Source: an uncultured bacterium
GTDB taxonomy: Bacteria; Eisenbacteria; RBG-16-71-46; CAIMUX01; WJJG01
Assembly (NCBI GenBank): GCA_964417675.1
Contig: CAYQJL010000282.1
Span: 148,794 to 212,793 of the forward strand
Reading direction: 5' to 3'
DNA length: 64,000 nt
Shown: positions 222 to 51,308 of the stretch, one piece after another
Position numbering within the stretch: the first letter of the stretch is position 1
Layout of the letters: each line of letters starts with the position of its first letter
Made by a program: the position numbers and the translations under genes
Notes under the pieces: model-generated
Told to the model about the DNA's origin: nothing
The model's database searches: none
The model's input: only the letters and a program-made list of their open reading frames with translations

Positions 222-3149
222 CTAGGCATGCGCGTCATACCAGGTCTTCCCCCAGCCGGCATCCACCTTCAGCGGAACCGCGAGCTTGAACACCGAGGAC
301 ATCTCATCCTCCACCAGGGCAGCCATCTCAGAGGCCTTTGCCTCGGGCAGCTCGAGCAAGAGTTCGTCGTGAACCTGCAGCAACAGGTGCACGTCCGGGT
401 GTTCCCGGGCCAGGCGCCGGTGAAGCCGGATCATGGCCCGTTTGATCAGATCGGCCGCCGAGCCCTGCACGGGCGTGTTCAGCGCCATTCGTTCGGCGGC
501 CGAACGATCCCCGTGGTGCCCCGACAGAAGATTGGGCAGATAACGCCGCCGCCCGAGCAGGGTCTCGGCGTACCCGCGCGATCGGCCTGTCTCGACACAG
601 GCGTCGATGTACACTTTCACGCCGGGGAGCTTGGCGAAGTACTCCTGGATGAAGGCCGCGGCCTCCTTCACGGGGATGCCCTGCTCGCGCGCCAAACGCT
701 GCGCGCCCATCCCGTAGAGGATTCCGAAATTGACCGTCTTGGCCCGCGAGCGCATCGCTGCATCCACCTGTTCCTCCCCGACCCCGAAAACCCGTGCCGC
801 CGTGGCGCGATGAATGTCGGCTCCCTGGCAGAACGCCCGGGTCAGATAGTCGTCCTGGGAAAGGTGGGCGAGAATTCGCAGTTCGATCTGCGAGTAGTCC
901 GCCGATAGCAGACAACGACCGGGCGGAGCCGCAAACGCCCGGCGGACCCTCCGTCCCAGGGGAGTGCGTATCGGGATGTTCTGCAGATTCGGATCTGAAG
1001 AGCTCAGCCGACCGGTCGCCGCCACGGTCTGGTGGAAATGGGCATGAATGCGGCCTGTACTCGGAGAGACCATTCTGGGCAGAGCTTCGACATAGGTGCT
1101 CTGTAGCTTGCTCAGTTGGCGGTACTCGAGGATCTTGGCGGGCAGGGGATGTTCAACGGCCAGCTCCTCGAGCACGTCCTGGCTGGTGGAGTAGCCGGTC
1201 TTGGTCTTTCGTTTCGCCGGTAGTTTCAACTGCTCGAACAGAATGACCTGAAGCTGCTTGGGGGAATTGATGTTGAAGACACCGCCCGCCAGATTGTGGA
1301 TCTGTGCGGAGAGTCTGCTCTGCTCAGCCTCCAGTTCCCCCGACATGGCCGCAAGCACCTGACGGTCGAGTCCAATCCCGGTCGACTCCATATCCAACAG
1401 CACCGGAAGCAACGGCATCTCGAGATCGAGAAACAGCTCGCGCGCATCCACGTCATCAAGATTGCGCGCCAGCAACGGCATCAGCCGCACGACGGCGTCG
1501 GCATCCTCACAGGCGTAGGGCGCCACAGCAGCCGGCGGTAGTGTTCCCATCGAGACCTGCTGACGGCCCGTTCCAATCAAGGCGTGAATCGGAATCATGG
1601 CGTGATCAAGAAACTCGGCAGCCAGCGCATCGAGACCGTGGCGCGTTTCCGGATCGCGCACATAGGACGCAACCATCGTATCCCACAAGGGACCCGCGAC
1701 GGGAAGTCCATGCCGTCGAAGCAGATGCAAGTCAAACTTCAGATTCTGCCCCATCTTGGTGACCTGCGCGTCGGCCAGCAACCGTCCAAGACTCTCACGC
1801 ACGGCCTCCAGCGGTAGGCGGGGCTCCTGATCGTGGCCCACGGGCACATACCAGGCCCGCCCGGCTTCCCACCCGAAACTGAGACCAACCAGCTTGGCTG
1901 TCAGGGGCGCGGTGGAGTCGGTCTCGGTATCGATGGAGAGTCCTGGGAGGCCCCCACCCCCGCCGGGAAACCGGCGAATCACCGCCTGGAGTTCACCGGG
2001 CGTGGTGATGAGCGTGTAGGCCACGTCCCAGCCGTCGGCGACCTGTATGCGCCTTGGCAGACCAGTGGCAGCCGCCCCGGAGGATCGATCTTCCGGCGCA
2101 GCACCCACCCCGGCCGCGTTTCCATCGCCGGCGCCCGCCCCGACCACGCTTCCATCGCCGGCGTCCCTCTCGGCGGCCGCCGCCGTCGCCGCGCCTGCCT
2201 GCGCGCCCAGAGCGCCGCCACTCGGCTGCTCCGATGGATCACCGAACACGCGCTGGGCGAGGGCGTGGAACTCCATCTCCTCCAGAAAATCTTGAAACGC
2301 CCCCTGCTCTGCCGGATCGGCAACCCTGAAGGCCTCCGCCGGCGCCACCTCCACATCGGTGCGAATGCTGACCAGGTCGCGGCTCAGATAAGCCTGCTCG
2401 CGGCCTTCCTCAAGCTTCCTGCGCATGCCGCCCGGTTCCACCTGGGCAAGATTCGCGTAGACTCGGTCGAGATTGCCGTGGACCTGGAGTAGCTTCGCGG
2501 CCGACTTCGGACCGATACCCTTGACCCCGGGCACGTTGTCCGAGCTATCCCCCGTGAGGGCGAGGAAGTCGATGAACTGCTCCGGCCGTACACCCCACTT
2601 CTCGACCACCTCCTCCGGACCCACCCACTCGGCCGGCTCCCGCCCTCGCGACGGAATGTACTGCGTGATGGCCCCGCCGATCAGTTGCGCGAAATCCTTG
2701 TCCCCCGAAACGATGACGGCGTCCCAGTCACGACCGGCGGCCTGGCGGGCCAACGAGCCGATCAGGTCGTCCGCCTCGAGGCCTTCCTGCAGCAAGGCCC
2801 GCCAGGAGAGCGAGTCGACCAGCCGGTGAGCCAGGGGAAACTGGCCCTTGAGTTCCGAGGGCATCTCGGGACGATGGGCCTTGTATTGAGGATAGATCTT
2901 GTGACGAAACGTTGGCCCGGGTGGGTCGAATACCACGGCGATGTACTCGGCCTTCTCGTCGCGTCGCAAGGCCAGGAGCGTGCTGGTGAAGCCGAACAGG
3001 GCCCCCACGTGCTGACCCCGGGATGTGGTCAGAGGCCGCCGGAGAAAGGCGAAGTGCGCCCGGTAGAGAAGGGCGGATCCGTCCACCAGAAAGAGGCGCC
3101 GCCGCTTCCGCCGGCGGCCGTCCGAATCGGGCGACTCGGGACCGTGCAT
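222..3149 (-). CDS. polA: DNA polymerase I
   Basis: 975-aa ORF. The N-terminal 5'-nuclease domain (LFLVDGSALLYRAHFA) is followed by 3'-5' exonuclease and polymerase domains with motifs RRAAKTVNFGILYGMG and VHDELLLE. A Gly/Ala-rich insertion of about 55 aa carrying a 30-bp tandem duplication lies at about 2105-2170. Confidence 0.97.
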   Translation of the reverse strand: MHGPESPDSDGRRRKRRRLFLVDGSALLYRAHFAFLRRPLTTSRGQHVGALFGFTSTLLALRRDEKAEYIAVVFDPPGPTFRHKIYPQYKAHRPEMPSELKGQFPLAHRLVDSLSWRALLQEGLEADDLIGSLARQAAGRDWDAVIVSGDKDFAQLIGGAITQYIPSRGREPAEWVGPEEVVEKWGVRPEQFIDFLALTGDSSDNVPGVKGIGPKSAAKLLQVHGNLDRVYANLAQVEPGGMRRKLEEGREQAYLSRDLVSIRTDVEVAPAEAFRVADPAEQGAFQDFLEEMEFHALAQRVFGDPSEQPSGGALGAQAGAATAAAAERDAGDGSVVGAGAGDGNAAGVGAAPEDRSSGAAATGLPRRIQVADGWDVAYTLITTPGELQAVIRRFPGGGGGLPGLSIDTETDSTAPLTAKLVGLSFGWEAGRAWYVPVGHDQEPRLPLEAVRESLGRLLADAQVTKMGQNLKFDLHLLRRHGLPVAGPLWDTMVASYVRDPETRHGLDALAAEFLDHAMIPIHALIGTGRQQVSMGTLPPAAVAPYACEDADAVVRLMPLLARNLDDVDARELFLDLEMPLLPVLLDMESTGIGLDRQVLAAMSGELEAEQSRLSAQIHNLAGGVFNINSPKQLQVILFEQLKLPAKRKTKTGYSTSQDVLEELAVEHPLPAKILEYRQLSKLQSTYVEALPRMVSPSTGRIHAHFHQTVAATGRLSSSDPNLQNIPIRTPLGRRVRRAFAAPPGRCLLSADYSQIELRILAHLSQDDYLTRAFCQGADIHRATAARVFGVGEEQVDAAMRSRAKTVNFGILYGMGAQRLAREQGIPVKEAAAFIQEYFAKLPGVKVYIDACVETGRSRGYAETLLGRRRYLPNLLSGHHGDRSAAERMALNTPVQGSAADLIKRAMIRLHRRLAREHPDVHLLLQVHDELLLELPEAKASEMAALVEDEMSSVFKLAVPLKVDAGWGKTWYDAHA

Positions 3150-3790: not shown

Positions 3791-3793
3791 CGG

Positions 3794-4576: not shown

Positions 4577-4806
4577 GATTGCCGTTTCTGTAATGGTTTC
4601 AAGGTCTCCTGGCCCCGCCTTTCGTATCGGCTGGCATCGGGTCCGCCCCACGGGCCGGCCTGCTCCCCATGCCCGTGTGTGTGCCTGCTCCGGGCCGTTA
4701 CCTACTCCCGCGCGTGCCTGCTCCGAACAGCTGCCTACTCGCTCGCGGGCTTGCTCCAGGCGCTCGTGCCTGTCCGTGCCAGAGCAGACATGGGATCGTC
4801 TGGCAG

Positions 4807-5880
4807 CTACTTCTGATTCTGATCGAACAGGTACACCAGACCACCGATGATGGCTGTGACGATCACCGGTTCGATGAGGCGGCGCAGCTGTGCCCCCTCG
4901 GGCCTCTCGATCGCAAAGGGATACCCGTTCCCCTCCGCGTAGGGCAACGCCCACCCCGGTAGCTCATCGATGTTGATGCGATCGCCGGCAGCTACAGCCG
5001 CCACGCGCCCACCCGGCTGCACCACCCGGCTTCCGCGCACCTTCACGCTGGCGTAGCGGCCGTAGCGGCGCGGTCCCACCAGCCAGTCGCGCTTGACCCA
5101 TGGATAGCTGACCCCGCATTCAAGAACCCGGAACGTAAGGATCTCCCCAGCCGGAGGCAGAATGAGCACCGGTTGGCCGGGCGTCTCGACACCCGTCTGA
5201 GCGCCAGCCTCCTGTTGCTTCTGCTGTTGCTGCAGCGCACGACGCCGGGCCGGCCGGATCGGTTCGAGGTCGGCCTCCTCCTCATCCTCTGCTTCCTCAC
5301 CCGTACCGCTGCCCGACCCCTCGGCCTCCTCGCCGAACTCCGACTCGTCGGCCTCGGCAAATGGATCATCAGCCTCCTGATCGGACTCCGGATCCTGATC
5401 GGACTCCGGATCCTGATCGGATTCGGCCTCCTGCCCAAGCGGCGATTGCGGCCCCGTCTCGGGTGGCTCGTCCCCCGGACCGACCGGTTGCGATTCCCCG
5501 CCGCGAGAGGCAGCCCCAGGCACACTGCTGGGAACAGACACCGCCGCCGGCGCCCCACCGGGCCCGGCCAAGGCCGGGCGGATGACTCCGTACCCGCGCT
5601 CCCGCAGGCCCCGCGCAAGAAGACCACCTACAAACCAGTTGGCCGGGTGCTCGGTCTCGGGAATCAAATGGACGTCCGTGCCGGGGGGGAAATCGAGCTG
5701 ATCGAGACACTCCACGACGGCGGCGCGGCCAAGTGACTCGAGGAGTGACAGGTGATCGGGGCGCTCCTCACCGGCACTCGCGGTCCGCAAAACGCAGCAG
5801 AAAGTCCCGAGCAGAAGCGCCCATCCCGCCAGTGCCAGCAGAAGCTGCCGGCCTACCTGGCTCTTCAGCACACGCGTCAT
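4807..5880 (-). CDS. hypothetical membrane-anchored protein with an acidic repeat region
   Basis: 357-aa ORF with an N-terminal hydrophobic segment and a central Asp/Glu-rich low-complexity stretch (ESDQDPESDQDPESDQ), encoded by an 18-bp x3 tandem repeat at 5378-5431. The C terminus is a hydrophobic helix (IEPVIVTAIIGGLVYLF). I recognise no family. Confidence 0.5.
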   Translation of the reverse strand: MTRVLKSQVGRQLLLALAGWALLLGTFCCVLRTASAGEERPDHLSLLESLGRAAVVECLDQLDFPPGTDVHLIPETEHPANWFVGGLLARGLRERGYGVIRPALAGPGGAPAAVSVPSSVPGAASRGGESQPVGPGDEPPETGPQSPLGQEAESDQDPESDQDPESDQEADDPFAEADESEFGEEAEGSGSGTGEEAEDEEEADLEPIRPARRRALQQQQKQQEAGAQTGVETPGQPVLILPPAGEILTFRVLECGVSYPWVKRDWLVGPRRYGRYASVKVRGSRVVQPGGRVAAVAAGDRINIDELPGWALPYAEGNGYPFAIERPEGAQLRRLIEPVIVTAIIGGLVYLFDQNQK

Positions 5881-11910: not shown

Positions 11911-12074
11911 GCCTTGCTCCTTTCCGGATCCGTGCGTTCGATGCACCCTACCTGCCTACTGCCCCATACGTCGCACCCTTGCGCCGTATGGCTCCACACT
12001 GGGTATCGAGACGGTGCGACATCCTAGCCCAATCCAAACCTGGATACAACCGCCCCCCCCCCACAGGCGTCCCC

Positions 12075-12164
12075 GCCGATCCTGTTCCCGCGGGGGATCG
12101 TCCCTCCGATCCTGTTCCCGCGGGATCGGCCCGTGGATCCTGTTCCCCGGGAGATCGCCCCACG
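12075..12164. repeat. 30-bp x3 tandem repeat with internal dyad symmetry (REP-like) between the nucleotidyltransferase and metK
   Basis: Three tandem units ccgatcctgttcccgcgggggatcgtccct, ccgatcctgttcccgcgggatcggcccgtg and gatcctgttccccgggagatcgccccacgg. Each contains GATCC...CCCGCGGG...GGATC palindromic arms. Confidence 0.6.
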
Positions 12165-15789: not shown

Positions 15790-17640
15790 TCATTGCCAGG
15801 GTGTCAGGCCCAGTGCCAATACGAGCGCACACGCCCAACCCCACAAAAGGGCCCGCCCTCCAACGAGCAGGCCCAAGGGAAGGCCCAGGATAAACCAAAC
15901 CAGCCCATGCCGGAAGAACGACATGACCCCTGATTCTGTTCCCACGGCAAACGGACCCAAATGCCTGGCGAGCACCAAACCGACCCACAGAGCCAGGAGC
16001 GGAATCAGCAACGCCAGCGCCGTTGGCAACCAATCCCACACCCAACCACGCCCCCCTCGAACGCAGTCCCACCCCTTGCGCCAGCCCCAGCGGTAGAGAC
16101 CCCACCGCATCACGACATGAAACAGCAGGCTGGCGCCCACATAGATAAGGAGTCCCAGCCAGGGACGAAGAACCGGAAGAACCGTCAGGCCCAACACCAT
16201 GAGGCTCAGAACAGGGCGCACGCCGCCCCACAGAACGCGGTCACCCCACTGGGCCAGCACCGCACCGCCCACCGTCAGCAAGCGGGCCGGGGCCCGCGGA
16301 AGCGAGCCCCGACCCGCCTCGGTCAGGACACGCTCGATGCCACCCGCCAGGGCCGCGGCCAATACGGGCTGAGTGTTGTACGTTCCCGTCTGGGCAATGT
16401 CAAACTCGGTCTGGCTGCGAATGGCTTCCGCGCCCCGCAAGCGCTCCTCAGGAATGGCGCGCACGATCCCAAGGAAGCCAGCCCGCTGAAGGTAGGCGAA
16501 GTTGAACGATGCCTGCAAGAGCAGGAAGGCCCGCCATTGGCGAAGCCGTGGGAACGGTGCGCCCGGGCTTCCAGAATGCACCTGGAACGTCTCCCCGCCG
16601 GGCGGCTTGCCCAGCGCGCCTGCCTTGCCAGTTACGGAACTTGCTGCGCCTGGGGCCGTTGCCCCGTCCCCGGACCGGCCTCGCTGCCAGCGATGCTTCA
16701 GTCGCTTGACTTCGATTCCCAGGCCCAGGGCCCGCTGCCCGAGCACGCCGCCCAAGGCGAACAGCAGAAGGGCACCTAGCGGCGCCCCCCGCAACCCGCC
16801 GTGCAAATCCACCTGTCCCAAGCCGGCCAGGCCCCACCAGGTCTCTGCTGCCCCGATGCGGGATTCGAATCCCAAGGCAAGGTCACTGACCCACAGCAGA
16901 ATCATGGCAGGCATCAGCACCAGGCTCAGGAGCAGGAGCGGGCCCACCAGGGACGCCTCGATCCCTCCGCTGGCCAGGAGTCCCTCCACCCGCACACCGC
17001 TGGCGCATGTCGCCTCCGCGTACACGACGCGCTCGCGCCGCTCGTTGCGCCGGCGCAACCGATTCTCCGTCCACTCACCGACCGTGGCAGCCAGCAACGC
17101 CAACACCACCGCCACGCTTGCGTCCCAGGGAGTGGCCAGCGGGGAGAGCAAACACAACCAGGCGGTCCCGATCACAGCGGCCGGTCCCACGGCCGGCTGC
17201 CGGGACCCACCCATGGGGAGCAGACCGGGCCAGACCGCCTGAAGAGCGAAGCCCATGCCCAGCCCGGCGAGTGGATTGCCGAGGAGCACTCCGGCCATCG
17301 AAGCGGCCACCAGCGGCTGGTGCAGGAACAGAGGTCCCACTGCGCGTTCGTCCGCGGCCACGAGGGCGGCCCACATCGCGAGAAGCGCCCATCGGAGACC
17401 GCTGCCGAACTCGGCGCACAGTGCATGGAAGGTCACGCCGAATGCTCCACCGGACGCTCCCATTGCCGCGCTGACGACTGTCCCCGCGCACCTCTCGGCG
17501 GACACCCCGGCGGCCACCATCGCCCCCACGGCGATCACCGGGGGGAGCCATGCAAACCGAAGCCCGGTCCCGACAGCCGTCCGGCGGAACCCGGGAGCCG
17601 GTCCAGTGCCCGAGCCATCCGGTACGGTCGCCCCCCCCAC
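15790..17640 (-). CDS. PTS mannose/fructose/sorbose-family fused IIC-IID permease
   Basis: 616-aa polytopic membrane protein. The N-terminal half is IIC-like. The C-terminal half has the IID signature region WRAFLLLQASFNFAYLQRAGFLGIV (compare IID FWRSFFIQASWNYERMQNLGF). Its GTG start lies 9 nt after the GH57 stop. Confidence 0.75.
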   Translation of the reverse strand: MGGATVPDGSGTGPAPGFRRTAVGTGLRFAWLPPVIAVGAMVAAGVSAERCAGTVVSAAMGASGGAFGVTFHALCAEFGSGLRWALLAMWAALVAADERAVGPLFLHQPLVAASMAGVLLGNPLAGLGMGFALQAVWPGLLPMGGSRQPAVGPAAVIGTAWLCLLSPLATPWDASVAVVLALLAATVGEWTENRLRRRNERRERVVYAEATCASGVRVEGLLASGGIEASLVGPLLLLSLVLMPAMILLWVSDLALGFESRIGAAETWWGLAGLGQVDLHGGLRGAPLGALLLFALGGVLGQRALGLGIEVKRLKHRWQRGRSGDGATAPGAASSVTGKAGALGKPPGGETFQVHSGSPGAPFPRLRQWRAFLLLQASFNFAYLQRAGFLGIVRAIPEERLRGAEAIRSQTEFDIAQTGTYNTQPVLAAALAGGIERVLTEAGRGSLPRAPARLLTVGGAVLAQWGDRVLWGGVRPVLSLMVLGLTVLPVLRPWLGLLIYVGASLLFHVVMRWGLYRWGWRKGWDCVRGGRGWVWDWLPTALALLIPLLALWVGLVLARHLGPFAVGTESGVMSFFRHGLVWFILGLPLGLLVGGRALLWGWACALVLALGLTPWQ

Positions 17641-17649: not shown

Positions 17650-20088
17650 CTAGCGCTTCGACTTCACCAAGCGGATCGGCCGCCTGCCTCGGGCCAACTC
17701 TCCCGCGGGCACACGCAAGTCGGGTTGGCCGTCACGCATCTCTGCCCGGTACCCGAACCGGTGCTCCCCACCCGGCACCAGGTGCAGCGGGAAATAGAAG
17801 AGAATCGCCAGCCCCTGATCATTGCTTTCAGCGCCCCCTTCCGACAGGCTCACCGTCCTGACCGGATAGCGGCAATAGGCGGCCGGCGCTGACAGAGAGA
17901 ACTCGATATGCCAGTTGGCCCATCCCTCGACCAGATGCAGGGAGTCCACGGCGGGGGCCTGTCCCACTGCCCCCAGATAGGCTGGCTTCGCACGCTGTCC
18001 GTTTACCACCAGGAAACGGTCATCCGCCTTGGCTGCCAGCAGATTGGCATGGTTCTCGATCGCCGCCCACGCACGCATCTCATGGTCCGACTGATTGCGG
18101 AAACGGTAGTCGACGCTATAGCCCCTTTCTCCAGACTGAACGCTGATCGTCTTCTCAACCTGCAGCGGCTGGCAGTTCCCCCCACGCCATAGCCCCCCGG
18201 TCCGTCGCAGCCGCACCTGGACCCGATCCTTCTCCTCGATCACGTCGGCCTCATACGGCTGGTTGACGAAATCACCGATCTCGTGCTGACTCTGCAGCAT
18301 CTGGCGGACCGGATCCGGTTCCTCATCGAAGAATCGATCGGTGAGCGCGGCCCGATCGTACCAATCATAGGTCAGCAGTTCACGCAGCCCGTCTTCCTTC
18401 GAGGTGATCCCCCCGTGAATGCTCGCGGCCTGTTCCTGGGAGGAATCCACCGCCGCCGCGTTCGGCGTCTCGGGGGCCGCATCGGCGCCCGCCGTGGATC
18501 GGGCCGCGTCCGGCGTCTCAGGGCCCGCGTTGGCGCCCGCCGCGAATCGGACCGCGTCCGGCGTTCCTGGGTCCGCATCGGCGCCCGACGCAGATCCGGC
18601 CGCGTCCGACCCCTCGGGCTCCAGCGAATCGGCCGCCTGCTCGGCGGCACTCCCGGTCACCTTGCGATGGTAGTATTCCTCGCGGCGACTGATCACATTG
18701 ATCAGATTGTAGCCCGCAGAACGGTCATCCCATTCCAGCAAGCGCCCACCGCCATTCGGATCGAGGAACAGCGCAAGCTGATCGTTCTCGAGGACAATCT
18801 CATTGTGGCCGTCGATGTCCAGATCCGCGGCTCGCATCGCCACCCAGGGCTCGCGACCATGCAGCCCGCGGGCCAACAGCGCCTCCCCCCTGATCAGCTC
18901 TGCGTAGACGCCATGGCGCAGATGCGGCAGGTACATTCCGCCGAACACACCGTGCCAGTACGCGCAATTGCATTGCGCCCGCCACAGGTGATCCCGGCAA
19001 TTCTCCCACGCCTCTCGCCGCATCGTGCTGCGGAAGGCGCGGCAGCGCCCGGAGGCCTCGAGCGCGCGCATGTGCATCCAACTGCTCTCCGGATAGCGCG
19101 CGAAGAAGTTTCGCCAGAAGCCACCCCGCACAAACAGGCGCCCCTCATCCTCGAGGCCCGCCTCGGACAGCGTCTCGCGCAGCTGCTCACAGACGGCCTG
19201 ATGATGCGCCGGCAATGACCAGTCGCCCATCTCGGCATAGGATCCGGTGGGCAGATAGGCCAGTCCAACCGGATCCTGTTCGCGCGCCTCCCGCGCGAAG
19301 GTCGTCGGCAGGATCGCGTCACCGGCGGCCTCGAGCGCGCTCAGAAAGCGATCGAGCCATCGCCGTTGGTAGACCAGCTTGTGCGTGCCGGGCCATGTTC
19401 CGAACTTCTCGCCGTCATCAGCATAGACGGCCAGTCCATCCCCACCGCCTGGGAAGGGGTTCCTCAAGAACCGGACCACTTCATCCGGATCCGCGAACGG
19501 AATCCGATAGCGCAAGCTCATCAGCGCCGGGAACAGGCGCAGGCTGCGGCCGGCGCTCTCGGTCAGGAAACTGCCACGAATCCGCTCCGCGCCCACGCCG
19601 ATCTGCTGGAGCTGCGTATCGTCAATCGGCAAGTACGAGATCCCGGCATCCACGAGATCCAGTGGCAAATCCGGTTCCCACACGCGTTCGGTCAGCCAGA
19701 TGCCACGGGCATCGACATCGAAGCGCGAGGTCAGGTACTCCCTCATCTTCTCAACTTGACCGCGCCGGTCCTCCGGCGTCAGCGCCGGCAGGACCGGTTC
19801 GTAGAACCCGCCCCCGAGGATCTCAAGACGGCCGCTTCGAACCGCACCCGCAATGCGATCAAGATACTCGGGATGGTTCTCCTCCAACCATTCCCACAGA
19901 CAACCGGAGTTGTGCAAGACCCACGGGATCGCGGGGTGACGTTCCATCACCTCGAGGAACGGCAGGTACGCCCTTTGATAGGCATCCTCGATCACATGAT
20001 CGAAGTTGCCCACCGGCTGATGATTGTGAACGCAGAAGACAAAACGGATCGGCGCCAATTCGACCTCCTTGTCGCGGACAGTCCCCAC
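17650..20088 (-). CDS. glycoside hydrolase family 57 (alpha-amylase / 4-alpha-glucanotransferase / branching-enzyme type) with C-terminal extension
   Basis: 812 aa with the GH57 conserved regions FVFCVHNHQP, WLTERVW, YADDGEKFGTWP and AQCNCAYWHGVFGG. A 48-bp x3.3 in-frame tandem repeat at 18453-18625 encodes a Pro/Ala/Asp-rich insert. Confidence 0.85.
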   Translation of the reverse strand: MGTVRDKEVELAPIRFVFCVHNHQPVGNFDHVIEDAYQRAYLPFLEVMERHPAIPWVLHNSGCLWEWLEENHPEYLDRIAGAVRSGRLEILGGGFYEPVLPALTPEDRRGQVEKMREYLTSRFDVDARGIWLTERVWEPDLPLDLVDAGISYLPIDDTQLQQIGVGAERIRGSFLTESAGRSLRLFPALMSLRYRIPFADPDEVVRFLRNPFPGGGDGLAVYADDGEKFGTWPGTHKLVYQRRWLDRFLSALEAAGDAILPTTFAREAREQDPVGLAYLPTGSYAEMGDWSLPAHHQAVCEQLRETLSEAGLEDEGRLFVRGGFWRNFFARYPESSWMHMRALEASGRCRAFRSTMRREAWENCRDHLWRAQCNCAYWHGVFGGMYLPHLRHGVYAELIRGEALLARGLHGREPWVAMRAADLDIDGHNEIVLENDQLALFLDPNGGGRLLEWDDRSAGYNLINVISRREEYYHRKVTGSAAEQAADSLEPEGSDAAGSASGADADPGTPDAVRFAAGANAGPETPDAARSTAGADAAPETPNAAAVDSSQEQAASIHGGITSKEDGLRELLTYDWYDRAALTDRFFDEEPDPVRQMLQSQHEIGDFVNQPYEADVIEEKDRVQVRLRRTGGLWRGGNCQPLQVEKTISVQSGERGYSVDYRFRNQSDHEMRAWAAIENHANLLAAKADDRFLVVNGQRAKPAYLGAVGQAPAVDSLHLVEGWANWHIEFSLSAPAAYCRYPVRTVSLSEGGAESNDQGLAILFYFPLHLVPGGEHRFGYRAEMRDGQPDLRVPAGELARGRRPIRLVKSKR

Positions 20089-25827: not shown

Positions 25828-25854
25828 CAGGAGGAACCCTCCACGGAGCCCCCC

Positions 25855-31833: not shown

Positions 31834-31956
31834 CGCCAGATGCCTCCTGTCCGCTACAAAGCTCTCCGCGGCAATCCTTTGGCGAACATAGGTCGCCCCT
31901 GTCACAGGGGTCAACCTAAGAGTCCAACGAAAGGGAGGTGGAATCCGGGAACGCGG

Positions 31957-37296: not shown

Positions 37297-39405
37297 TCAG
37301 AGCGCCCCCGGCGCTCGAAGAAGGCCGCCGCCCCCCTCATCCGCCGGCTCTCTGGACCGAACGGGATCTGCCGGGGGGGGGCATGCCGGGGGGGAACCGA
37401 AGTATGGGTCGCGCGGCCGATCCAGGTGCGCGCCCAGCTCGTCTGCCCCGCCCCGTTTCGAGTCGGGAGAGACGCCGCGGCCAAGGTTGGGAGAGACGCC
37501 GCGGCCGAGGTCGGGAGAGACGCCCCGGCCGAGGTCGGGAGAGACGCGCGGGTGGAGTTGGTGGTCGAGCGCGAGAGGATCTTCACGCAGAAAAACCTCC
37601 AGCACCTGCTGAACCAAGGGGGCCGCCACCACCCCCCCGTGGCCGGCTTCCTCCACGATTGCCAGCACGACAATACGCGGCTCATCGATCGGCGCTACCG
37701 CCAGGAAGAGAGCGTGATCCTCACCGTGAGAGTTCTGAGCTGTTCCCGTCTTACCTCCAATACGGAATCCCGGTACGCGAGCCCGGTGCCCAGTGGCCCG
37801 CTCACTCTCGACCGCATGCTCCAGCAGCTCCCTGACCAGGCGCCGCGTCTCCGGCGTGCTGTCGATGACCCGGCTGCCGGCATCCCGATCCGCGCTCCAG
37901 GTCACGGTGCCATCCCGCAATACGGCCCGGCGAGCCAGATGCGGCCGGCGCTGTACCCCATCGCTGACGAGCGCCCCTATGTACACCGCTACCTGTAAAG
38001 GAGTTAGTATGATCTCCCCCTGTCCGATCGAGAGATTCAAGGCGATTCCTTCCGGCGGCGTCGTTCCCAGACGCCGGCGATACCATTCCATGTCAGGAAT
38101 CAGTCCCTCGCGCTCATCGGGTACGTCGATGCCGGCTGGCCGATCAAGACCCAAGGAGTTCATGTAGCGCAGGAGCCGGCGCAGCCCCATCTCACGCGCG
38201 AGCTGATAGTAGTACACGTCGCAGGACTGCCCGAAGGCCTCGAACAGATCCACACGCCCATGGCCGGTCTCCTTCCAACAACCGAACGTGCGATTCCCGA
38301 ATGTGTAGCTTCCGTTGCATGCATCAAACCGAGTAGTCCGCGAAATCACCTGGGCATCGATGCCCGCCAGCGTCGACACGACCTTGAACAGCGACGCCGG
38401 CGGATAGCCGGCCTGAATCACCCGATTCAGAAGAGGCCGGTCCTCGGCATTGAGTGCCGCCCATTCTTCGCCGGAAAGTCCATGAGCGAACCCGTTCGGA
38501 TCGAAGGACGGGCTGCTTGCGCAGGCGAGAATCTCTCCGGTCCACGGGTCGATCGCCACAAGCGATCCCTTGATCGGCAGGCCGCGCCGCCGGGCCAGTG
38601 CGTCCGGCTGGAGTTGGGTACGGGCAAGGGCCTCTTCCGCCACGGACTGGAGCTGCGCGTCGATGCAAAGATGCAGATCCGCTCCAGGCTCAGGAGGCTG
38701 GGGAGGCAGATCGGGAAACAGGTCGGTAACTCGTCCGAATGCATCGACCCGGACATAGGTTTCGCCGCCGCGGCCCCTCAGGATAGACTCATACTGGCGT
38801 TCGAGACCGGATCGCCCGATCAGCTCCCCGCGGCGGTACTTGTGATCGGTGCGCAGCAACTCCTGCTCGCTGACCTCCCCCATGTACCCCAGGATGTGGG
38901 CCGCCAGATGCCCCTGCGGATACCAGCGCAGCGGCACTTCCGCGATTGTGATGCCCGGAATCGGCTCGAGCCGCTCGAAGAAGGGACCCAATGCGGTGGG
39001 GTCCACATCGCGGTCGAGCAGCAGCGGTTCAAAGCGGTTGCGATACAGCCGGGCACGCTGCGCCAAATCCTCTGCATCGCGGCCGAGCAAACGGGCCACT
39101 TCCTCGATGGCTTCGCCAAGATAGCGGGCACGCTTGTAGGCCGGATGCCCGGCCTCCAGACTGAGGTTGAAGCTCACCCGGTTGCCGGCCAGCAGCCGGC
39201 CCTCTCGGTCGAAGATCCGGCCGCGCAGGGCCGGGATCGGCTCACTGCGAACCATATTCTCGCGGGCCAACTCCGCGTAATGGGATCCGCGCGTGATCTG
39301 TAAGAAGAAGAGCCTCCCCCCCAGCAACAGCATCAGGGCCGCGACGCTCAGGGTCAGCGCCAGCGCACGGGATCTGCGCGCGCGCAGATTCTCAGGAAAC
39401 GGCAC
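37297..39405 (-). CDS. mrdA: penicillin-binding protein 2 (elongasome transpeptidase)
   Basis: TM anchor, dimerisation domain, transpeptidase with SxxK (ASLFKVV) and KTGT motifs (GGKTGTAQ). The C-terminal tail carries a 24-bp x4 tandem repeat (37463-37558) encoding RVSPDLGRGVSPDLG repeats. The start is placed at the GTG at 39405, preceded by SD AAGGGGG. Confidence 0.88.
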   Translation of the reverse strand: MPFPENLRARRSRALALTLSVAALMLLLGGRLFFLQITRGSHYAELARENMVRSEPIPALRGRIFDREGRLLAGNRVSFNLSLEAGHPAYKRARYLGEAIEEVARLLGRDAEDLAQRARLYRNRFEPLLLDRDVDPTALGPFFERLEPIPGITIAEVPLRWYPQGHLAAHILGYMGEVSEQELLRTDHKYRRGELIGRSGLERQYESILRGRGGETYVRVDAFGRVTDLFPDLPPQPPEPGADLHLCIDAQLQSVAEEALARTQLQPDALARRRGLPIKGSLVAIDPWTGEILACASSPSFDPNGFAHGLSGEEWAALNAEDRPLLNRVIQAGYPPASLFKVVSTLAGIDAQVISRTTRFDACNGSYTFGNRTFGCWKETGHGRVDLFEAFGQSCDVYYYQLAREMGLRRLLRYMNSLGLDRPAGIDVPDEREGLIPDMEWYRRRLGTTPPEGIALNLSIGQGEIILTPLQVAVYIGALVSDGVQRRPHLARRAVLRDGTVTWSADRDAGSRVIDSTPETRRLVRELLEHAVESERATGHRARVPGFRIGGKTGTAQNSHGEDHALFLAVAPIDEPRIVVLAIVEEAGHGGVVAAPLVQQVLEVFLREDPLALDHQLHPRVSPDLGRGVSPDLGRGVSPNLGRGVSPDSKRGGADELGAHLDRPRDPYFGSPPACPPPADPVRSREPADEGGGGLLRAPGAL

Positions 39406-46440: not shown

Positions 46441-46628
46441 ACCCGCCCGGGATGACTGCGCGGCCCGGCCGTTGGGACACCTGGACGAACAACCCGCCCA
46501 GGATGACTGCGCGGCCCGGCCGTTGGGACACCTGGACGAACAACCCGCCCGGGATGACTGCGCGGCTCGACCGTTGGGACTCCTGGACGAACAACCCACC
46601 CGGGATGACTGCGCGGCTCGACCGACTC
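46441..46628. repeat. 51-bp tandem minisatellite, about 3.6 copies
   Basis: The unit cccgcccgggatgactgcgcggcccggccgttgggacacctggacgaacaa repeats with a few substitutions per copy. It generates the spurious overlapping ORFs on both strands seen in the track. Confidence 0.85.
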
Positions 46629-46725
46629 GGCTTGATCGATGAATGCCCACCTGTCCCGAGTAGCGCTCAGATCAAGTCGCATGGGACCGTCCCCACGACG
46701 GCATGCGACTGTCTCCCTCTCCCGT

Positions 46726-46800
46726 ACCCTCCGGCACACTCCCGCGCCCTCCCGAGCCCTCCGGCGCACTCCCATGCCCTCCGGCGCACTCCCGCGCACT
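46726..46800. repeat. about 20-bp tandem repeat, about 3.5 copies
   Basis: ccctccggcacactcccgcg, ccctccggcgcactcccatg, ccctccggcgcactcccgcg. Confidence 0.7.
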
Positions 46801-46835
46801 TCACCCGCCTCGTTGCCTGGCCTGCCGCAACATGG

Positions 46836-46862
46836 CATGTGAATTGCTACAGAATTCACATG
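46836..46862. promoter_or_regulatory. perfect 10-bp inverted repeat with 7-bp spacer in an AT-rich spacer (candidate operator)
   Basis: CATGTGAATT gctacag AATTCACATG. It lies about 345 bp upstream of the HNH gene in the lowest-GC stretch of the window. Confidence 0.3.
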
Positions 46863-47207
46863 AGCACGGGCGCACAATTCATACGAGAGATGTAGTTTAG
46901 ACTTGTATCCCGATAGTGCATGTCGTAGAGTTGACTAGTTATCCTGTAATGCTCGCCTGAACGCACCAACAACTGAATCCATCGTCCGGTCGATGCTTTC
47001 TTGCTCAATCCCGTGGCGGTGCGAACTCCATAGCGGACAATCGGAAGTGTGCATCGCCACCGCCGCCGGCATCGGGAGCTGTGGCAAGGCTCACCTGGCA
47101 GGGGCGCCCGAGGAGCCGGGGCTGGGACCTCAACAGCCACGCCGTGGTTCTGAGGACCACTCCCTATCCCGGCGCAGGAACAGAAATTCCATACAAGGAG
47201 GTGGAAC

Positions 47208-48842
47208 GTGGCGCATCTCTATATGGTTCATGAATCGCAGGCCGGAATCGTCGCCGAGTCGACACGCTCTGATTCCGCCAGGCATCGTGCCTGGCGGCCG
47301 GGACCTTCGCCCGAGTCGGGAGAAACACCGTCACAAGCCGTACAGCCAAGATCGGGCCGCGCGCCACGGAAGCCTCATGCCAGGCTCTTTCGTGGGCGTC
47401 GGCACATGTCCGCAAACGAAGTGGTCGGCCATCTGCGAGAAGCCGTTCACAACATGTACAACGCGGAGATGAGCGCCTGTGTGTGGTTCAGTGAGATTCT
47501 CCGCCGGGAGCTGTATCGCACATACGGCTATGCTTCGATTCACGCCTTCGCCTCCGAGGAACTCGACTTCACTCCCAACCGAATCGCCCGCTATCTGCGG
47601 TTGATCGAGGATCTCAGGGACTTACCCCGCACCCGCAGCGCCCTCTATTCGGGCCGGATCGAGTGGACGAAGGTGCGCGAGATTGCCAAAGTGGCAAGTG
47701 CCCGCAACGAGCGGAGTTGGCTGAAGTGTGCATCCCGATGCAGCCGCCGCGAACTGGAAGCCCTGGTCAGACGCGCCAAGAGGAAGAATGACCTCGCTGC
47801 CCGCCAGAACGATCAGCAGCCCAACCTCCAGGCCCTTCCGTTGCCATCGACGCAACCCGGGACTCAAGTCGCAAGAGGAGAGCAAACACCGGCGGCGTCA
47901 ATATCCGTGGCTGGCGCCCCCGCCGGATCGCCCAGCGCCTCCGCCGGGGCTGTCGCCCCCGACGGCCCGCCCGGCGATCTCAGTGCCGCTGAGAGCAGTG
48001 TCCCCGACGGCCCGTCCGGCGATCTCGGTGCCGCTGAGAGCAGTGTCCCCGACGGATTCCTTGGTTCTGCCGACGTCTTCGGGCACGGTGAGGTACAAGG
48101 TTCTGAGGAGCTGGCTGCCGACGGACCCGTGTCGGTCCTCCTTCGCCTGCTTCCCGTGGAGGCTGCCCAGTTCGAGGCGCTGCTTGCCAATGCCAGAAAG
48201 CAAGGGCTGTTCCCACCCAACACGACGAAGGCCCAGATCGTCTTGCAGGCACTGCATGCGTTCGTCGCATCGGCCTCGCGGCCGCGGTCGATCGGAACCC
48301 ACGCCCCCGCCGTCGATGAACGCACCACAGGGACCGTGACACCCGATGCGTTCTCCCCGCCTGAAGATGACGGCATCCAGTCTTCGGATGACAACCCTGG
48401 CCGCGTGCCGAACCGAACCGACTCTCTCCCGAGCCCCGGGAGTCCCTTGCCCCGGGGCACAGGATCAACTCCTTATCAAATAGTCATTTACAAGTGCGAA
48501 GCGTGCCAGAAAGCGACGGTCCAGACTCAGTTGGGCCCTCGACGAGTGGGCCGCCCTGTTCTCGAAGCGGCCCACTGTGATGCCGTCCTGATCAAACCCG
48601 GGAGCCGGAATCGCTCATCTATACCTCCCTCGGTACGGAGGAAGGTCATGGTACGCGACGGACACCGATGCAGAGCTAGGGGATGCCAGAATACGCAGTT
48701 CCTTGAGGTTCACCACATCGTCCCCCGGGACCGGGGTGGATCGAACCACCCTGACAACCTTGTCGTGCTCTGTAGCATCTGCCATCGGCTGTGGCATGAG
48801 AAGAACCTCGACGAGCGGTTTCTGAAGCTGACCACGCAATAG
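47208..48842 (+). CDS. DUF222-like N-terminal domain protein with C-terminal HNH endonuclease
   Basis: GTG start with a strong SD AAGGAGG 6 nt upstream. The C-terminal HNH motif is RCRARGCQNTQFLEVHHIVPRDRGGSNHPDNLVVLCSICHRLWH. The N-terminal helical region (ILRRELYRTYGYASIHAFASEEL...RIARYLRLIEDLRDLP) resembles the DUF222 domain that typically precedes HNH in this family. An internal 45-bp x2.2 tandem repeat sits at 47958-48055. Confidence 0.8.
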   Translation: MAHLYMVHESQAGIVAESTRSDSARHRAWRPGPSPESGETPSQAVQPRSGRAPRKPHARLFRGRRHMSANEVVGHLREAVHNMYNAEMSACVWFSEILRRELYRTYGYASIHAFASEELDFTPNRIARYLRLIEDLRDLPRTRSALYSGRIEWTKVREIAKVASARNERSWLKCASRCSRRELEALVRRAKRKNDLAARQNDQQPNLQALPLPSTQPGTQVARGEQTPAASISVAGAPAGSPSASAGAVAPDGPPGDLSAAESSVPDGPSGDLGAAESSVPDGFLGSADVFGHGEVQGSEELAADGPVSVLLRLLPVEAAQFEALLANARKQGLFPPNTTKAQIVLQALHAFVASASRPRSIGTHAPAVDERTTGTVTPDAFSPPEDDGIQSSDDNPGRVPNRTDSLPSPGSPLPRGTGSTPYQIVIYKCEACQKATVQTQLGPRRVGRPVLEAAHCDAVLIKPGSRNRSSIPPSVRRKVMVRDGHRCRARGCQNTQFLEVHHIVPRDRGGSNHPDNLVVLCSICHRLWHEKNLDERFLKLTTQ

Positions 48843-48871: not shown

Positions 48872-48947
48872 CATCACCTGGGACAAGCGGCATCACCTGG
48901 GACAGGCGGCATCATCTGGGACAGGCGGCATCACCTGGGACAAGCCG
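48872..48947. repeat. 19-bp x4 tandem repeat immediately downstream of the HNH gene
   Basis: catcacctgggacaagcgg, catcacctgggacaggcgg, catcatctgggacaggcgg, catcacctgggacaagccg. A further 16-bp x2.3 repeat gccgccccaggatgat lies at 49064-49104. Confidence 0.8.
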
Positions 48948-49254
48948 CCTGAGTAGGCATTACACCGGATCGATCGGGGCCTTCACGCATCGCTGTGGAT
49001 TGCTCACATTTGGATCTCCGCGGACCGCCGCCACCCGGGCGGGTCCGCGACACTCGGGTATTGCCGCCCCAGGATGATGCCGCCCCAGGATGATGCCGCC
49101 ACCCCCTCGGGTGTCGTCTGTCCTGGGTGGTACCGTCGTCGACTCGTGCGGTGGCCCTGGCTGGTTGGGGAACGTGCATCCGTTCGTGATAGGGGAGCTG
49201 ACCCGAGATAGCTAATGCTGGACGGATGCAATATCCAACGGTAGGGTTTGTCCC

Positions 49255-49830
49255 ATGAAACACCACGACGATGGCAATTCCATCTTGGAAGCTGGAGTCG
49301 GCCACCGGTCCTCTTCCCGCGGCCATGTGCCGGTCACCGCGCTGTCGGGACAGCGCGAGCCTGCAATCGACGTGCACAGAAGAGATGCAAGACCGATCCT
49401 CGTCCCGGACCTGGAGGCATTGTCGTTTCGGAACCAGGCGTGCTCCCCTGTGAGTGCGGCGCGGCGCATCGAACGCACCGGCGAATGGCGCAAGGGCCTG
49501 GTCCGGCCGACTCCCATTGGACACCTCGGACACAATGCGATGCGCTCAGGGCTTGTGCTGTTTGCGCGGTGTCACGCTATCCGTCATCGCCACGGCCGCT
49601 GGGACTCTGGAGCCCAGATCCTGGTGACGCCGAAGGACACTGCGGCCATGCTTCCCCAAGCCACTGACCAACCAGTTGGTTCCTTCAAAGATCCTCCGCC
49701 GCCAGCCCGGCAGAGAAGTTGTCTCGATCCGACCCCAGGAAGGGCCACCAATCCCGGCCAAGGCCCTCCCTATCGGTCTGACAACCTGGGCTTCATCCAC
49801 CGTCAGGCAGGCCAGGCGGAGCTGTCATGA
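49255..49830 (+). CDS. hypothetical protein (weak call)
   Basis: 191-aa ORF whose stop overlaps the glycosyltransferase start by ATGA. There is no recognisable domain. The Arg/His/Pro-rich composition and mixed third-codon positions make it a doubtful gene. Confidence 0.25.
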   Translation: MKHHDDGNSILEAGVGHRSSSRGHVPVTALSGQREPAIDVHRRDARPILVPDLEALSFRNQACSPVSAARRIERTGEWRKGLVRPTPIGHLGHNAMRSGLVLFARCHAIRHRHGRWDSGAQILVTPKDTAAMLPQATDQPVGSFKDPPPPARQRSCLDPTPGRATNPGQGPPYRSDNLGFIHRQAGQAELS

Positions 49831-51308
49831 GTGATGCGGAGACGTCCGGGACCCAGAGTACGTGGTCCCCGGAAGGTGGGCCCGGTTCGTGGGATCGGGA
49901 TGTTCGCTCGGATCGGCCGCGAGCGATCCTTTGCTTCGCCTCTTCAGACTTCGAGGCCCCGCAGTGGGTCAATGCGCAGCACCTCATGTGGCGCCTTTCC
50001 CAGCAACGCCGGGTGCTGTATGTCAATAGTCTCGGATTGCGCACCCCCCGCTTTGATCGGCGCGATCTTTCGAAGGTTCTCCGCCGACTACGGGGATTGG
50101 CACGACTCACCTACCAGCCGGACGCAAGCCACGACCTCCATGTATTTTCTCCGGTCAGCCTTCCGCCCAGACCCGAGCCCCGCTGGCAGGCTGCTTCGGC
50201 GTGGCTGCTTCTGTTTCGTCTGCGCCGCGCCCTGCATCAGCTGCACATGTCAGACCCCATCGTATGGACCTTCCTGCCCAGCGCTGAACCGATTCTTGCC
50301 AGCCTGGATGCTCGCTCGGTCGTCTATCACTGCGTCGATGCCTACGATGCAAATCCGGATGTCGATCAGGCCCTGATCCGGGCCCTCGAGGAAAAGGTTC
50401 TCAGTCGCGCCGACCGGGTCATCGCCACATCCCGGCCACTCCACGAGCGCCTGCGGGTGCGACATCGCCGCGTGCATCTCATGCCAAACGTTGCTGACTT
50501 GAGTGCGTATCCTCCTCCAGGGTGCCCGCCGCCCCAGCCGGGTGATCTAGCACAGGTGCCGGCCCCAAGACTCATCTACGTGGGAAACCTGGCGGCATAC
50601 AAGTGTGACATCCCCGTGCTTGAAGCAACGGCCCGCGCACACCCCAGCTGGTCTTGGATCTTTGTTGGGCCGGCAGGCCTTGGAGAGCGGAAGACACCGC
50701 TCGAGACGCTTCGTCGACTGCCGAACGTCCATCTACTGGGCCCCCGACGGAGGGAAGATCTGGCCGCGTACATTCATCACTGCGATGTAGGTCTCATTCC
50801 GTTCGTGCGCAGTTCCTCTACGAGGCACAGCTTTCCCATGAAGTTCTTCGAGTACCTGGCCTGCGGCAAGCCCGTGGTCTGCTCGAATCTGGCCAGCCTT
50901 CAGGAACACCTGCGACCGGGAATCGCCTATGCGTACGGTCCCGACGAAGGGCTCCCCTCCTTGGCGGAGTGCATCGAGGCCGCCCTGTTTCTGGGTGAGA
51001 CTGCGCGTGCCCAGGCAGGTCGCGGGGCTCTGGGCGCACGCGGAGCCGAGGGGACCGGCGGAGCCGAGGGGACCGGCGGAGCCGAAGGGACCGGCGGAGC
51101 CGGCAGGGCCGAGGATCCCGGGGAGGATGCCATGCTGCCCGAAGGCGCCGGTGCGCTCATGAACGGACCCGCTCTGATGGGGACAGGTCCGCTTGTGGCT
51201 CCTGCGGGCGTGGAGACACCGTGTTCTCGACGGGTTATGGCGGAAGCTCACAGCTGGGATCGACGAATGGCCGAAATCGCAGATCTAGTTGCTCAGATCG
51301 AGCGGTGA
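49827..51308 (+). CDS. glycosyltransferase family 1 (GT4-like) protein
   Basis: The C-terminal GT-B half (LIYVGNLAAYKCDIPVLE...IPFVRSSSTRHSFPMKFFEYLACGKPVV) carries the E-x7-E-like sugar-donor motif region. An 18-bp x3.5 in-frame repeat at 51044-51115 encodes GAEGTG repeats. Confidence 0.78.
   Translation: MSDAETSGTQSTWSPEGGPGSWDRDVRSDRPRAILCFASSDFEAPQWVNAQHLMWRLSQQRRVLYVNSLGLRTPRFDRRDLSKVLRRLRGLARLTYQPDASHDLHVFSPVSLPPRPEPRWQAASAWLLLFRLRRALHQLHMSDPIVWTFLPSAEPILASLDARSVVYHCVDAYDANPDVDQALIRALEEKVLSRADRVIATSRPLHERLRVRHRRVHLMPNVADLSAYPPPGCPPPQPGDLAQVPAPRLIYVGNLAAYKCDIPVLEATARAHPSWSWIFVGPAGLGERKTPLETLRRLPNVHLLGPRRREDLAAYIHHCDVGLIPFVRSSSTRHSFPMKFFEYLACGKPVVCSNLASLQEHLRPGIAYAYGPDEGLPSLAECIEAALFLGETARAQAGRGALGARGAEGTGGAEGTGGAEGTGGAGRAEDPGEDAMLPEGAGALMNGPALMGTGPLVAPAGVETPCSRRVMAEAHSWDRRMAEIADLVAQIER

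Follow-up and report, generated by a model that had tools for sequence, protein, structure and literature searches.

Why do housekeeping proteins of an uncultured bacterium carry tandem repeats inside their reading frames? The question is raised by a stretch of 64,000 nt (contig CAYQJL010000282.1 of assembly GCA_964417675.1, positions 148,794 to 212,793), here called the window, in which a sequence-only reading had listed eight such arrays. They lie in PolA, an acidic membrane protein, a GH57 enzyme, LptB, KdsB, PBP2, an HNH protein and a GT4 glycosyltransferase, and they had been taken as recent expansions that point to a genome-wide mutational or tolerance phenomenon. In this study, we compared the window with near-identical assemblies and with relatives. 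The explanation that we favour, at a probability of about 0.8, is that slippage, or duplication and deletion mediated by microhomology, occurs at a high rate specific to this lineage and that selection filters the products.

The host is an uncultured, apparently free-living lake-sediment lineage of the FCB group, whose nearest named relatives are Candidatus Eisenbacteria. The closest named proteins come from these bacteria (PolA 58-60% identity, GT4 56% and GH57 73%, the last over the alignable part only), and a RodA scan of GTDB species representatives gave best identities of 36-45%, mostly in Gemmatimonadota and Longimicrobiales. The window has about 64% GC and is about 87% coding (13% non-coding). 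Its gene map was drawn from codon statistics and cross-checked against the JGI and Logan gene calls, and a Pfam search confirmed the identities of the array-bearing genes, the acidic protein of 357 amino acids having no Pfam domain. Tandem arrays were detected with Tandem Repeats Finder (TRF) at score cut-offs of at least 50 and at least 70. JGI contig MLSed_10000029 (metagenome 3300001533) is 99.99% identical to the window, about 45 kb of which is covered by its pieces L001, L027 and L029, and Logan contigs from SRR1179191 and SRR2989655 match it equally closely (99.99%). Gene order is conserved in the metagenome-assembled genome (MAG) GCA_964573295.1 (L031; PolA 69% identical) and in three ENA loci (L033-L035, from ERZ24794671 and related assemblies; PolA 67% identical, GC likewise 64%). 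A scan of metagenomes with RpoN added one relative in perfect synteny with the window at 12-35 kb (L036) and 79 further loci, mostly 31-35% identical, which served as TRF baseline only; the GTDB RodA loci were used only as TRF baseline and for the comparison of PBP2 tails.

Arrays are far denser in the window than chance or comparable DNA would give. TRF found 25 non-overlapping arrays with a score of at least 50, against 30 in total in 50 second-order Markov shuffles (about 0.6 per shuffle, top score 67). At a score of at least 70 there are 21 arrays in 64 kb. The same cut-off gave 0.8 per 64 kb over 326 kb of GTDB relatives with similar GC, and 1.5 per 64 kb over the 888 kb of 80 metagenome loci. 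The excess is roughly 14-25-fold relative to comparable high-GC DNA from the FCB group (more than 1.2 Mb, Gemmatimonadota among it). Every one of the eight listed repeats was recovered by TRF within a few bases, and the list proved incomplete by at least 14 arrays, the LptC array at 25850-26017 among them. The density is highest at 46.3-52.6 kb, where about 7 arrays lie in 6.3 kb and coding scores are low.

The relatives differ sharply in this respect. L031 has 7 arrays with a score of at least 70 in 23 kb, with units unrelated to those of the window. Not one array of this score was found in L033-L035 (about 22 kb each) or in L036 (21 kb), intergenic DNA included, the last showing one weak 9-bp array with a score of 54. 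High array density is confined to one sub-lineage, which comprises the window lineage and L031 and excludes the syntenic sisters. Since the syntenic relatives are array-free even in spacers, where tolerance should be similar, a raised duplication input in one sub-lineage, and not tolerance alone, is suggested. The arrays arise locally and their units are mutually unrelated: a blastn-short search of doubled units against the window returned only the locus of origin, plus one 14-nt chance match. A dispersed or mobile repeat family such as REP/BIME, MITE or CRISPR was ruled out, because the units are unrelated and local and the copies are contiguous without spacers. An Rfam scan of the whole window gave no match at the gathering threshold, which sets the intergenic arrays apart from known RNAs and riboswitches.

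The periods of the arrays carry the mark of a filter. Seven arrays were counted as certainly translated because each sits in a single open frame with conserved blocks on both sides, or with a domain on one side and the stop codon on the other, and the period of each of the seven is divisible by 3. The intergenic periods are 28, 17, 23, 19, 16, 26, 35, 22, 51, 30 and 33, and their chance-like share of multiples of 3 (3/11) differs from that of the translated arrays (Fisher p = 0.004). When the arrays of L031 and of the L001 flank were added, the counts became 12/12 for translated and 4/15 for intergenic arrays (p = 0.0002). Half of the arrays considered (11/22) lie in the non-coding 13% of the window (p = 4e-5). 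The 33-bp array upstream of bamD was entered as ambiguous in the frame test; a coding role for it was ruled out by the orthologous spacer, which is 0-15 bp in L031 and L033, and by the called starts, which are downstream of the array. The spacer upstream of metK in L031 holds an unrelated 19-bp array.

Between thrS and the HNH gene, the JGI gene caller placed an open reading frame (ORF) of 147 amino acids (46452-46895, plus strand) that consists mostly of the 51-bp and 10/30-bp arrays. Each unit of the 51-bp array starts with ATG (MTARPGRWDTWTNNPPG), and both periods are divisible by 3, with no other support for coding.

Pfam, PDB and orthologue alignments, together with one AlphaFold model, place the coding arrays outside conserved blocks, in non-conserved or disordered segments. 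The PolA array lies in the linker between the 5'-nuclease Pfam domain, which ends at residue 278, and the 3'-5' exonuclease domain, which begins at residue 381. A comparison across 25 homologues showed that this interval, 111 residues long in the window, varies from 69-126 within the clade to 45-49 in the outgroups (KSB1, Krumholzibacteriia and Gemmatimonadota). The linkers are unalignable among homologues, the unit of the window occurs in no relative, and the nearest PolA relative (P0001, from L031) has two arrays of its own at this place. In a three-way alignment of the 357-residue membrane protein with its syntenic orthologues, the N- and C-terminal domains are conserved and the acidic linker that joins them is hypervariable; in L031 this linker has different arrays of 12 and 36 bp. 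Matches of the HNH protein to homologues in a library search stop at about residues 160-190 and restart at about residues 229-241, counted from the likely start at 47403; the array, residues 185-218, is inside this alignment gap and thus belongs to an unaligned linker.

The GH57 and GT4 arrays are in loops. The alignment of GH57 to 1K1W of Thermococcus litoralis breaks at the insert (query residues 480/542 against chain residues 450/447), and the loop, 45 residues in most of 29 orthologues, is 111 residues long in the window. In the nearest GH57 relative (P0138, 72%), the corresponding loop also holds a repeat insert, but of a different, (AAAEE) type. In the AlphaFold model of GH57 (mean predicted local distance difference test score, pLDDT, of 84; predicted template modelling score of 0.83), residues 490-564 are the only part of the body with pLDDT below 50 and have no secondary structure, so that a disordered surface loop is predicted. 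The GT4 array is inside an internal insertion of about 70 residues that all orthologues (386-414 amino acids) lack as a whole. The conserved C-terminal helix restarts past this insertion, and the orthologue alignment therefore ruled out that the array forms a C-terminal tail. A GT4 relative (P0258, 68%) bears a repeat insert of another kind, (GD/AY), in an adjacent loop. Folded or conserved structural repeat domains were also ruled out, given that the repeats are absent from orthologues and that the GH57 insert is predicted to be disordered.

The GT4 region was called differently by JGI, whose gene caller splits it (window 49255-51308; L029 16500-18553) into three domain-less ORFs of 191, 180 and 156 amino acids. 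The single ORF of 493 amino acids has clear GT4/GT1 Pfam domains and full-length orthologues. In L031, the dephospho-CoA kinase CoaE has an insertion of 26 amino acids formed by a 24-bp x2.5 array (L031 13048-13107). It lies about 9 residues past the P-loop motif (GKS), and the window lineage and L033 have no such insertion.

Two arrays form C-terminal tails. Homology of KdsB to solved structures stops at residue 284 of 314, and the tail of about 30 residues in L036 KdsB is unrelated. The transpeptidase domain of PBP2 ends at residue 655 according to Pfam, and rodA is next to pbp2; in 18 Gemmatimonadota-type relatives the PBP2 tails, directly before rodA, are low-complexity segments of 13-105 residues with unrelated sequence.

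Two further arrays are at or near N-termini, and there the gene callers, which differ on start codons in this genome, come into play. The lptB gene, encoding an LptB-type ABC ATPase, ends at 24438, and was called with 291 amino acids by NCBI and Logan and with 248 amino acids by JGI. The longer call starts at ATG 25313, which overlaps the lptC stop and is preceded at a distance of 8 nt by a good Shine-Dalgarno sequence (GGGGGAG). The shorter call starts at ATG 25184 and yields a canonical N-terminus. In the long ORF, homology to solved structures begins at residue 54, and L036 shows no conservation of the extension; the LptB array may be non-coding. For lptC, no in-frame start codon was found between ATG 26076 or TTG 26067 and GTG 25827. 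A start at GTG 25827 would make the signal peptide too short, and LptC of L036 has a full lipoprotein signal peptide; the LptC array is thus probably the n-region of a cleaved signal peptide. The LptB array that had been described as N-terminal is present, and it is translated only if ATG 25313 is used. The complication of start-codon assignment that had been foreseen applies to lptB and to lptC, and not to kdsB and pbp2, whose arrays are C-terminal.

As to gene order, lptC (25297-26202) is followed directly by lptB (24438-25313), with a 17-nt overlap or a 112-nt spacer depending on the lptB start, and no lptA lies between them. LptC is apparently a lipoprotein (Cys after LLS) and not a bitopic membrane protein, in L036 as well. 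Beyond the start of the window, a 19-bp x5.1 array (L001 14815-14911) overlaps the last ~13 codons of a peptide-chain release factor gene. The protein ends in ...RMG-SLPANG, unlike the ...KESATS and ...KESSQQ of two relatives; an essential protein thus seems to have had its end replaced by the array. For this release factor, the calls of only 312-315 amino acids may also reflect the programmed frameshift of RF2.

Could the low-complexity segments be ancestral functional linkers and tails, conserved in the clade, with old repeats kept for spacer length or interaction motifs? The length-variable segments at matching sites in relatives, as in the PolA linker and the PBP2 tail, speak for this, as do the KdsB tail of L036 and the acidic linker that is present in all three orthologues. 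Their sequences, however, are unalignable, and the units are private even against relatives with 67-72% identity, which largely refutes ancestry of the repeat units. Nearly all orthologues lack the GH57 and GT4 insertions, copy number varies between 99.99% identical genomes (see below), and the same process has filled intergenic DNA with arrays of random period. We regard this explanation as very improbable. The insertions were expected to be lineage-specific and at domain boundaries. The repeat units are indeed lineage-specific, and in the closest orthologues, as in all others, no unit was found; the host segments in PolA, the acidic protein, GH57, PBP2 and KdsB are older, being length-variable and of low complexity across the clade. 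A boundary position describes the inter-domain linker of PolA, and not the GH57 loop, which is within the C-terminal domain, or the internal insertion of GT4.

Comparison with the near-identical assemblies revealed change in progress. Over about 45 kb, the window and the JGI contig differ by 1-2 substitutions and by five in-frame indels. The JGI contig has two 21-bp units more in the KdsB array and one extra 24-bp unit in the PBP2 array, and the LptC array has one 15-bp unit fewer in JGI and in Logan SRR1179191. The KdsB alleles of 287, 294 and 301 amino acids correspond to 1, 2 and 3 perfect AAGQHEA units. The other two indels are in FtsK (818 amino acids in the NCBI record, 802 in JGI and Logan) and in the linker between EIIC and EIID of a fused phosphotransferase system (PTS) protein (616 amino acids in the window, 627 in JGI). 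These two are not array units; they are segments flanked by direct repeats of about 14 nt, imperfect in FtsK and perfect in the PTS gene. On the evidence of such flanks, they bear the signature of slippage or of microhomology-mediated deletion or duplication. Over 14 kb, the Logan contig from SRR1179191 shows the LptC and PTS differences as in JGI, plus two single nucleotide polymorphisms (SNPs). Outside the window, L001 and L002 have 0 substitutions in 15,151 bp and differ by one 32-bp unit in an intergenic array. All coding indels preserve the frame, and the arrays counted above as certainly translated agree with what had been said of frame preservation.

Whole-unit differences at KdsB, PBP2 and LptC on a background of so few substitutions bear on the proposal to compare copy number across isolates. 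Taken together with the intergenic arrays of any period, the excess over relatives and the array-free syntenic sisters, they support the suggestion of a genome-wide mutational phenomenon. The suggestion that the expansions are recent holds only in part: change is ongoing in KdsB, PBP2 and LptC, and the arrays of PolA, GH57, HNH and GT4, whose copies are 82-97% alike, are base-for-base identical in the independent JGI and Logan assemblies, as is that of the acidic protein.

The PTS protein with the variable linker is a mannose-family EIIC and EIID fused in one polypeptide (15790-17640) with a low-complexity linker. Its gene cluster includes HPr, EI, EIIA, EIIB, HPr kinase, rpoN and a ribosome hibernation factor, and adjoins the GH57 gene.

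Variable copy number also raises the idea that the arrays are adaptive contingency loci, at which copy number tunes or switches function or expression in the manner of phase variation. Besides the polymorphism itself, the positions of some arrays fit this idea: intergenic arrays are immediately upstream of metK, the HPr kinase gene, the kpsF-like gene and the Bmp-ABC operon, and two arrays abut the start codons of LptB and of the PNP_UDP_1 protein. The units, however, are 15-51 bp long, and because the frame is kept in every coding array, on/off switching by frameshift is impossible; phase-variable loci of the classical kind, with units of 1-8 bp whose gain or loss shifts the frame or the promoter spacing, were ruled out on these grounds as far as the coding arrays are concerned. 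The genes hit encode cytoplasmic and envelope housekeeping enzymes and no set of surface antigens. The positions of the arrays match mutational input plus tolerance; relatives have unrelated arrays at the same permissive sites. An adaptive role of this kind is thus very unlikely.

Several points weigh against a high rate of duplication and deletion as the explanation. The identity between copies in PolA (86%) and GH57 (82%) shows that these arrays are not very recent, and they are invariant between assemblies. All sources are short-read consensus assemblies and not reads, and such assemblies can collapse or mis-count repeats, so some copy-number differences may be choices of the assembler. Logan contigs from SRR2989655 that otherwise match at 100% end inside arrays, at 31012/31018 (KdsB), 37531 (PBP2) and 46479 (the 51-bp array). 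Short-read assemblies are thus broken up by the arrays, which may also be heterogeneous in the sample. The analysis covers 64 kb plus about 60 kb of flanks and relatives, and not whole genomes. Low effective population size with weak purging could also pile up arrays without a raised rate. A cause was sought in PolA and no candidate was found: its catalytic positions are all intact, those of the FEN-like 5'-nuclease domain included, and at conserved columns the two repeat-rich lineages share just two changes, both conservative (G115S/A and I735V).

The breaks inside arrays and the common short-read origin of the data would fit the view that metagenome assembly, or a chimeric population consensus, has produced the arrays or, failing that, the differences in copy number. 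The Logan assemblies use a k-mer size of 31, and the 32-bp difference between L001 and L002 may be an artefact of collapse at k = 31. Such collapse is excluded for the indels of FtsK and PTS, which are not array collapses, and for the 15-bp unit of LptC. The perfectly periodic run in which this unit differs is about 40 bp long, too short (below 46 bp) to contain repeated 31-mers. Moreover, most arrays are identical in three independent assemblies (the NCBI MAG, JGI and Logan), the frames of essential genes cross the arrays without stops, and assemblers collapse repeats and do not create them. Artefact is accordingly very improbable too, slightly more so than the other two alternatives considered here.

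We therefore return to a raised rate of duplication and deletion filtered by selection, which would operate as follows. Tandem duplications of short units (15-51 bp), and deletions that undo them, would be generated at an unusually high rate, probably by slipped-strand mispairing or microhomology-mediated tandem duplication during replication; once two copies are present, further units could be gained and lost. Such events would strike everywhere, and purifying selection would remove those that break a reading frame or a folded domain. Two classes are left. The first consists of arrays of any period in intergenic spacers. The second consists of arrays with periods divisible by 3 in length-tolerant parts of proteins: inter-domain linkers (PolA, FtsK, PTS EIIC-EIID, HNH and the acidic membrane protein), surface loops (GH57 and GT4), C-terminal tails (KdsB and PBP2), and N-terminal extensions or n-regions of signal peptides (LptC and possibly LptB). 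It is the anatomy of the arrays and indels that points to slippage or microhomology-mediated duplication as the molecular mechanism, and we likewise infer that the mutation rate is raised, relaxed purging alone not being enough to account for the excess.

A bolder version is that the sub-lineage of this MAG and GCA_964573295.1, and not the syntenic sister MAGs, has fixed a heritable 'tandem-duplication mutator' state, in which standing variation comes mainly from unit-length indels, more numerous than base substitutions, and disordered inserts in essential enzymes are remodelling the proteome. We hold this version only tentatively and think it rather less probable than its negation. Such a state might be caused by loss or alteration of a flap or single-stranded-DNA exonuclease or of a function in lagging-strand maturation. 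In yeast, microhomology-mediated duplication becomes more frequent when Rad27/FEN1 is lost (bioRxiv 10.64898/2026.02.28.708716); PolA is the bacterial analogue of FEN1 and, as said above, gave no lead here.

Similar repeats are known from other systems. The variable-number tandem repeat (VNTR) and mycobacterial interspersed repetitive unit (MIRU) minisatellites used for typing of Mycobacterium, Yersinia, Burkholderia and others number tens of loci per several Mb, and the MIRUs are a dispersed family. They resemble the arrays described here in having units of 10-100 bp, whole-unit polymorphism between strains and some in-frame members within genes; they differ in that here about 20 loci occur in 64 kb and all units are unrelated. 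Housekeeping proteins of Plasmodium falciparum and Dictyostelium have AT-rich homopolymer or codon-repeat inserts (Asn, Lys and Gln), which are likewise slippage-derived, disordered, lineage-specific and tolerated in the loops and linkers of enzymes. Here, in contrast, the host is a bacterium and the inserts are built of minisatellite units that span 5-17 residues, with a high content of Gly, Ala, Pro, Asp and Glu.

Microhomology-mediated tandem duplication has been described in Schizosaccharomyces pombe (PMC8639346) and is claimed to be universal (bioRxiv 10.64898/2026.02.28.708716). In this process, a segment bounded by short direct repeats duplicates or reverts and then expands to multi-copy arrays; the FtsK and PTS indels with their 14-nt direct-repeat arms resemble it, and every array here ends in a partial unit. 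However, it is described as a universal process of low frequency, whereas here arrays stand at 14-25 times the density seen in relatives, and in one sub-lineage only, so that a modifier specific to the lineage is implied. A close precedent is Ehrlichia ruminantium (PNAS 102:838, 2005; Frutos et al. 2006; cited in PMC10710844), which has many tandem arrays genome-wide, both intergenic and coding. Its arrays are likewise mutually unrelated, expand and contract actively between close strains and affect gene starts and ends. This obligate intracellular pathogen, however, is small and AT-rich, and its intergenic regions are long, with a coding density of roughly 64%. The present genome is GC-rich and densely coding, and has shorter arrays within core enzymes (PolA, KdsB, PBP2 and GH57). 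What we describe is thus a known kind of phenomenon in a new host. Among the matches listed in a full-text literature search, no report of such tandem repeats in Eisenbacteria was found.

The features are collected in the table. GC skew on the plus strand is negative across the window (1-64000), and up to about 42 kb the minus strand carries almost every gene; a single replichore, with genes co-oriented with replication, probably contains the window.

Table. Tandem arrays and repeat-flanked indels of the window (positions counted from its first letter; TRF, coordinates from Tandem Repeats Finder)
Feature	Position	Strand	Location and remarks
PolA, 30-bp x2.0 array, 86% match	2104-2163	-	codes residues 329-349; gene 222-3149
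33-bp x2.5 array	4681-4761		intergenic, between acidic-protein gene and bamD (yfiO); TRF
357-residue membrane protein, 18-bp x3.3 array, (ESDQDP)n	5375-5433	-	acidic linker; gene 4807-5880; TRF
FtsK linker, 48-bp segment	9691-9738	-	in window, absent from JGI; imperfect 14-15-nt direct repeat at ends
28-bp x3.1 array	12071-12161		intergenic, upstream of metK; TRF; no Rfam match
PTS fusion, site of 33-nt in-frame deletion relative to JGI/Logan alleles	16588-16607	-	between two 14-nt direct repeats (AGCCGCCCGGCGGG)
GH57, 48-bp x3.2 array	18455-18608	-	codes residues 494-545; 4-alpha-glucanotransferase-like gene 17650-20088; TRF
17-bp x3.6 array	22253-22314		intergenic, upstream of HPr kinase gene; TRF
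LptB, 30-bp x2.8 array, (HPEPTRPEAS)n	25191-25274	-	N-terminal extension (ATG 25313) or lptC-lptB spacer (ATG 25184)
LptC, 15-bp x ~11 array, (G-F/P-L-R-G)n	25850-26017	-	upstream of lipoprotein-type signal peptide and Cys; polymorphic by one unit
23-bp x2.9 array	28213-28279		intergenic, upstream of SIS/CBS (KpsF-like) gene; TRF
KdsB, 21-bp x3.4 array, (AAGQHEA)n	30977-31047	-	C-terminal tail; gene 30970-31914, stop 30970-30972; polymorphic
PBP2, 24-bp x3.8 array, (RGVSPDLG)n	37462-37551	-	C-terminal tail of ~93 residues; gene 37297-39405; polymorphic
51-bp x3.6 array (46441-46624) and 10/30-bp array (46719-46800)	46441-46800		between thrS and HNH gene; TRF
HNH endonuclease-family protein, 45-bp x2.2 array	47957-48055	+	Pro/Ser/Ala-rich linker; likely start 47403, end 48842; TRF
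19-bp x3.9 array (48872-48945) and 16-bp x2.4 array (49062-49100)	48872-49100		intergenic; TRF
GT4-type glycosyltransferase, 18-bp x3.5 array, (GAEGTG)n	51040-51102	+	gene 49827-51308; TRF
33-bp x2.3 array	52554-52630		at and past 3' end of GWxTD-domain gene; TRF
18-bp x2.8 array (57967-58016)	within 57967-58217		N-terminal extension or 5' untranslated region of PNP_UDP_1 protein; TRF
26-bp x3.6 array	58125-58217		intergenic; TRF
35-bp x4.1 array	61862-62007		intergenic, between Bmp substrate-binding protein gene and ABC ATPase gene; TRF
22-bp x3.0 array	63318-63384		intergenic, upstream of Bmp-family gene; TRF

These arrays have practical consequences, in that they break short-read contigs and lead to conflicting gene calls, as for lptB (248 or 291 amino acids), lptC and the GT4 gene fragmented by JGI; in the annotation of MAGs they would inflate apparent protein novelty. 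For the biology of the organism, the sub-lineage would be a natural, free-living, high-GC counterpart to Ehrlichia ruminantium, in which a raised duplication rate reshapes a compact genome: arrays would fill the spacers, in-frame minisatellites would build up in the tolerant parts of PolA, KdsB, PBP2, GH57, FtsK and others, and indels would rival or exceed SNPs between near-identical populations. The chief points of interest are this ratio of indels to SNPs and the contrast between repeat-rich and repeat-free sisters. The repeat-rich genomes (this MAG and GCA_964573295.1) and the syntenic, repeat-free sister (ENA ERZ24794671 and related assemblies) would together provide a comparative test for the genes that set the rate of microhomology-mediated duplication in bacteria.

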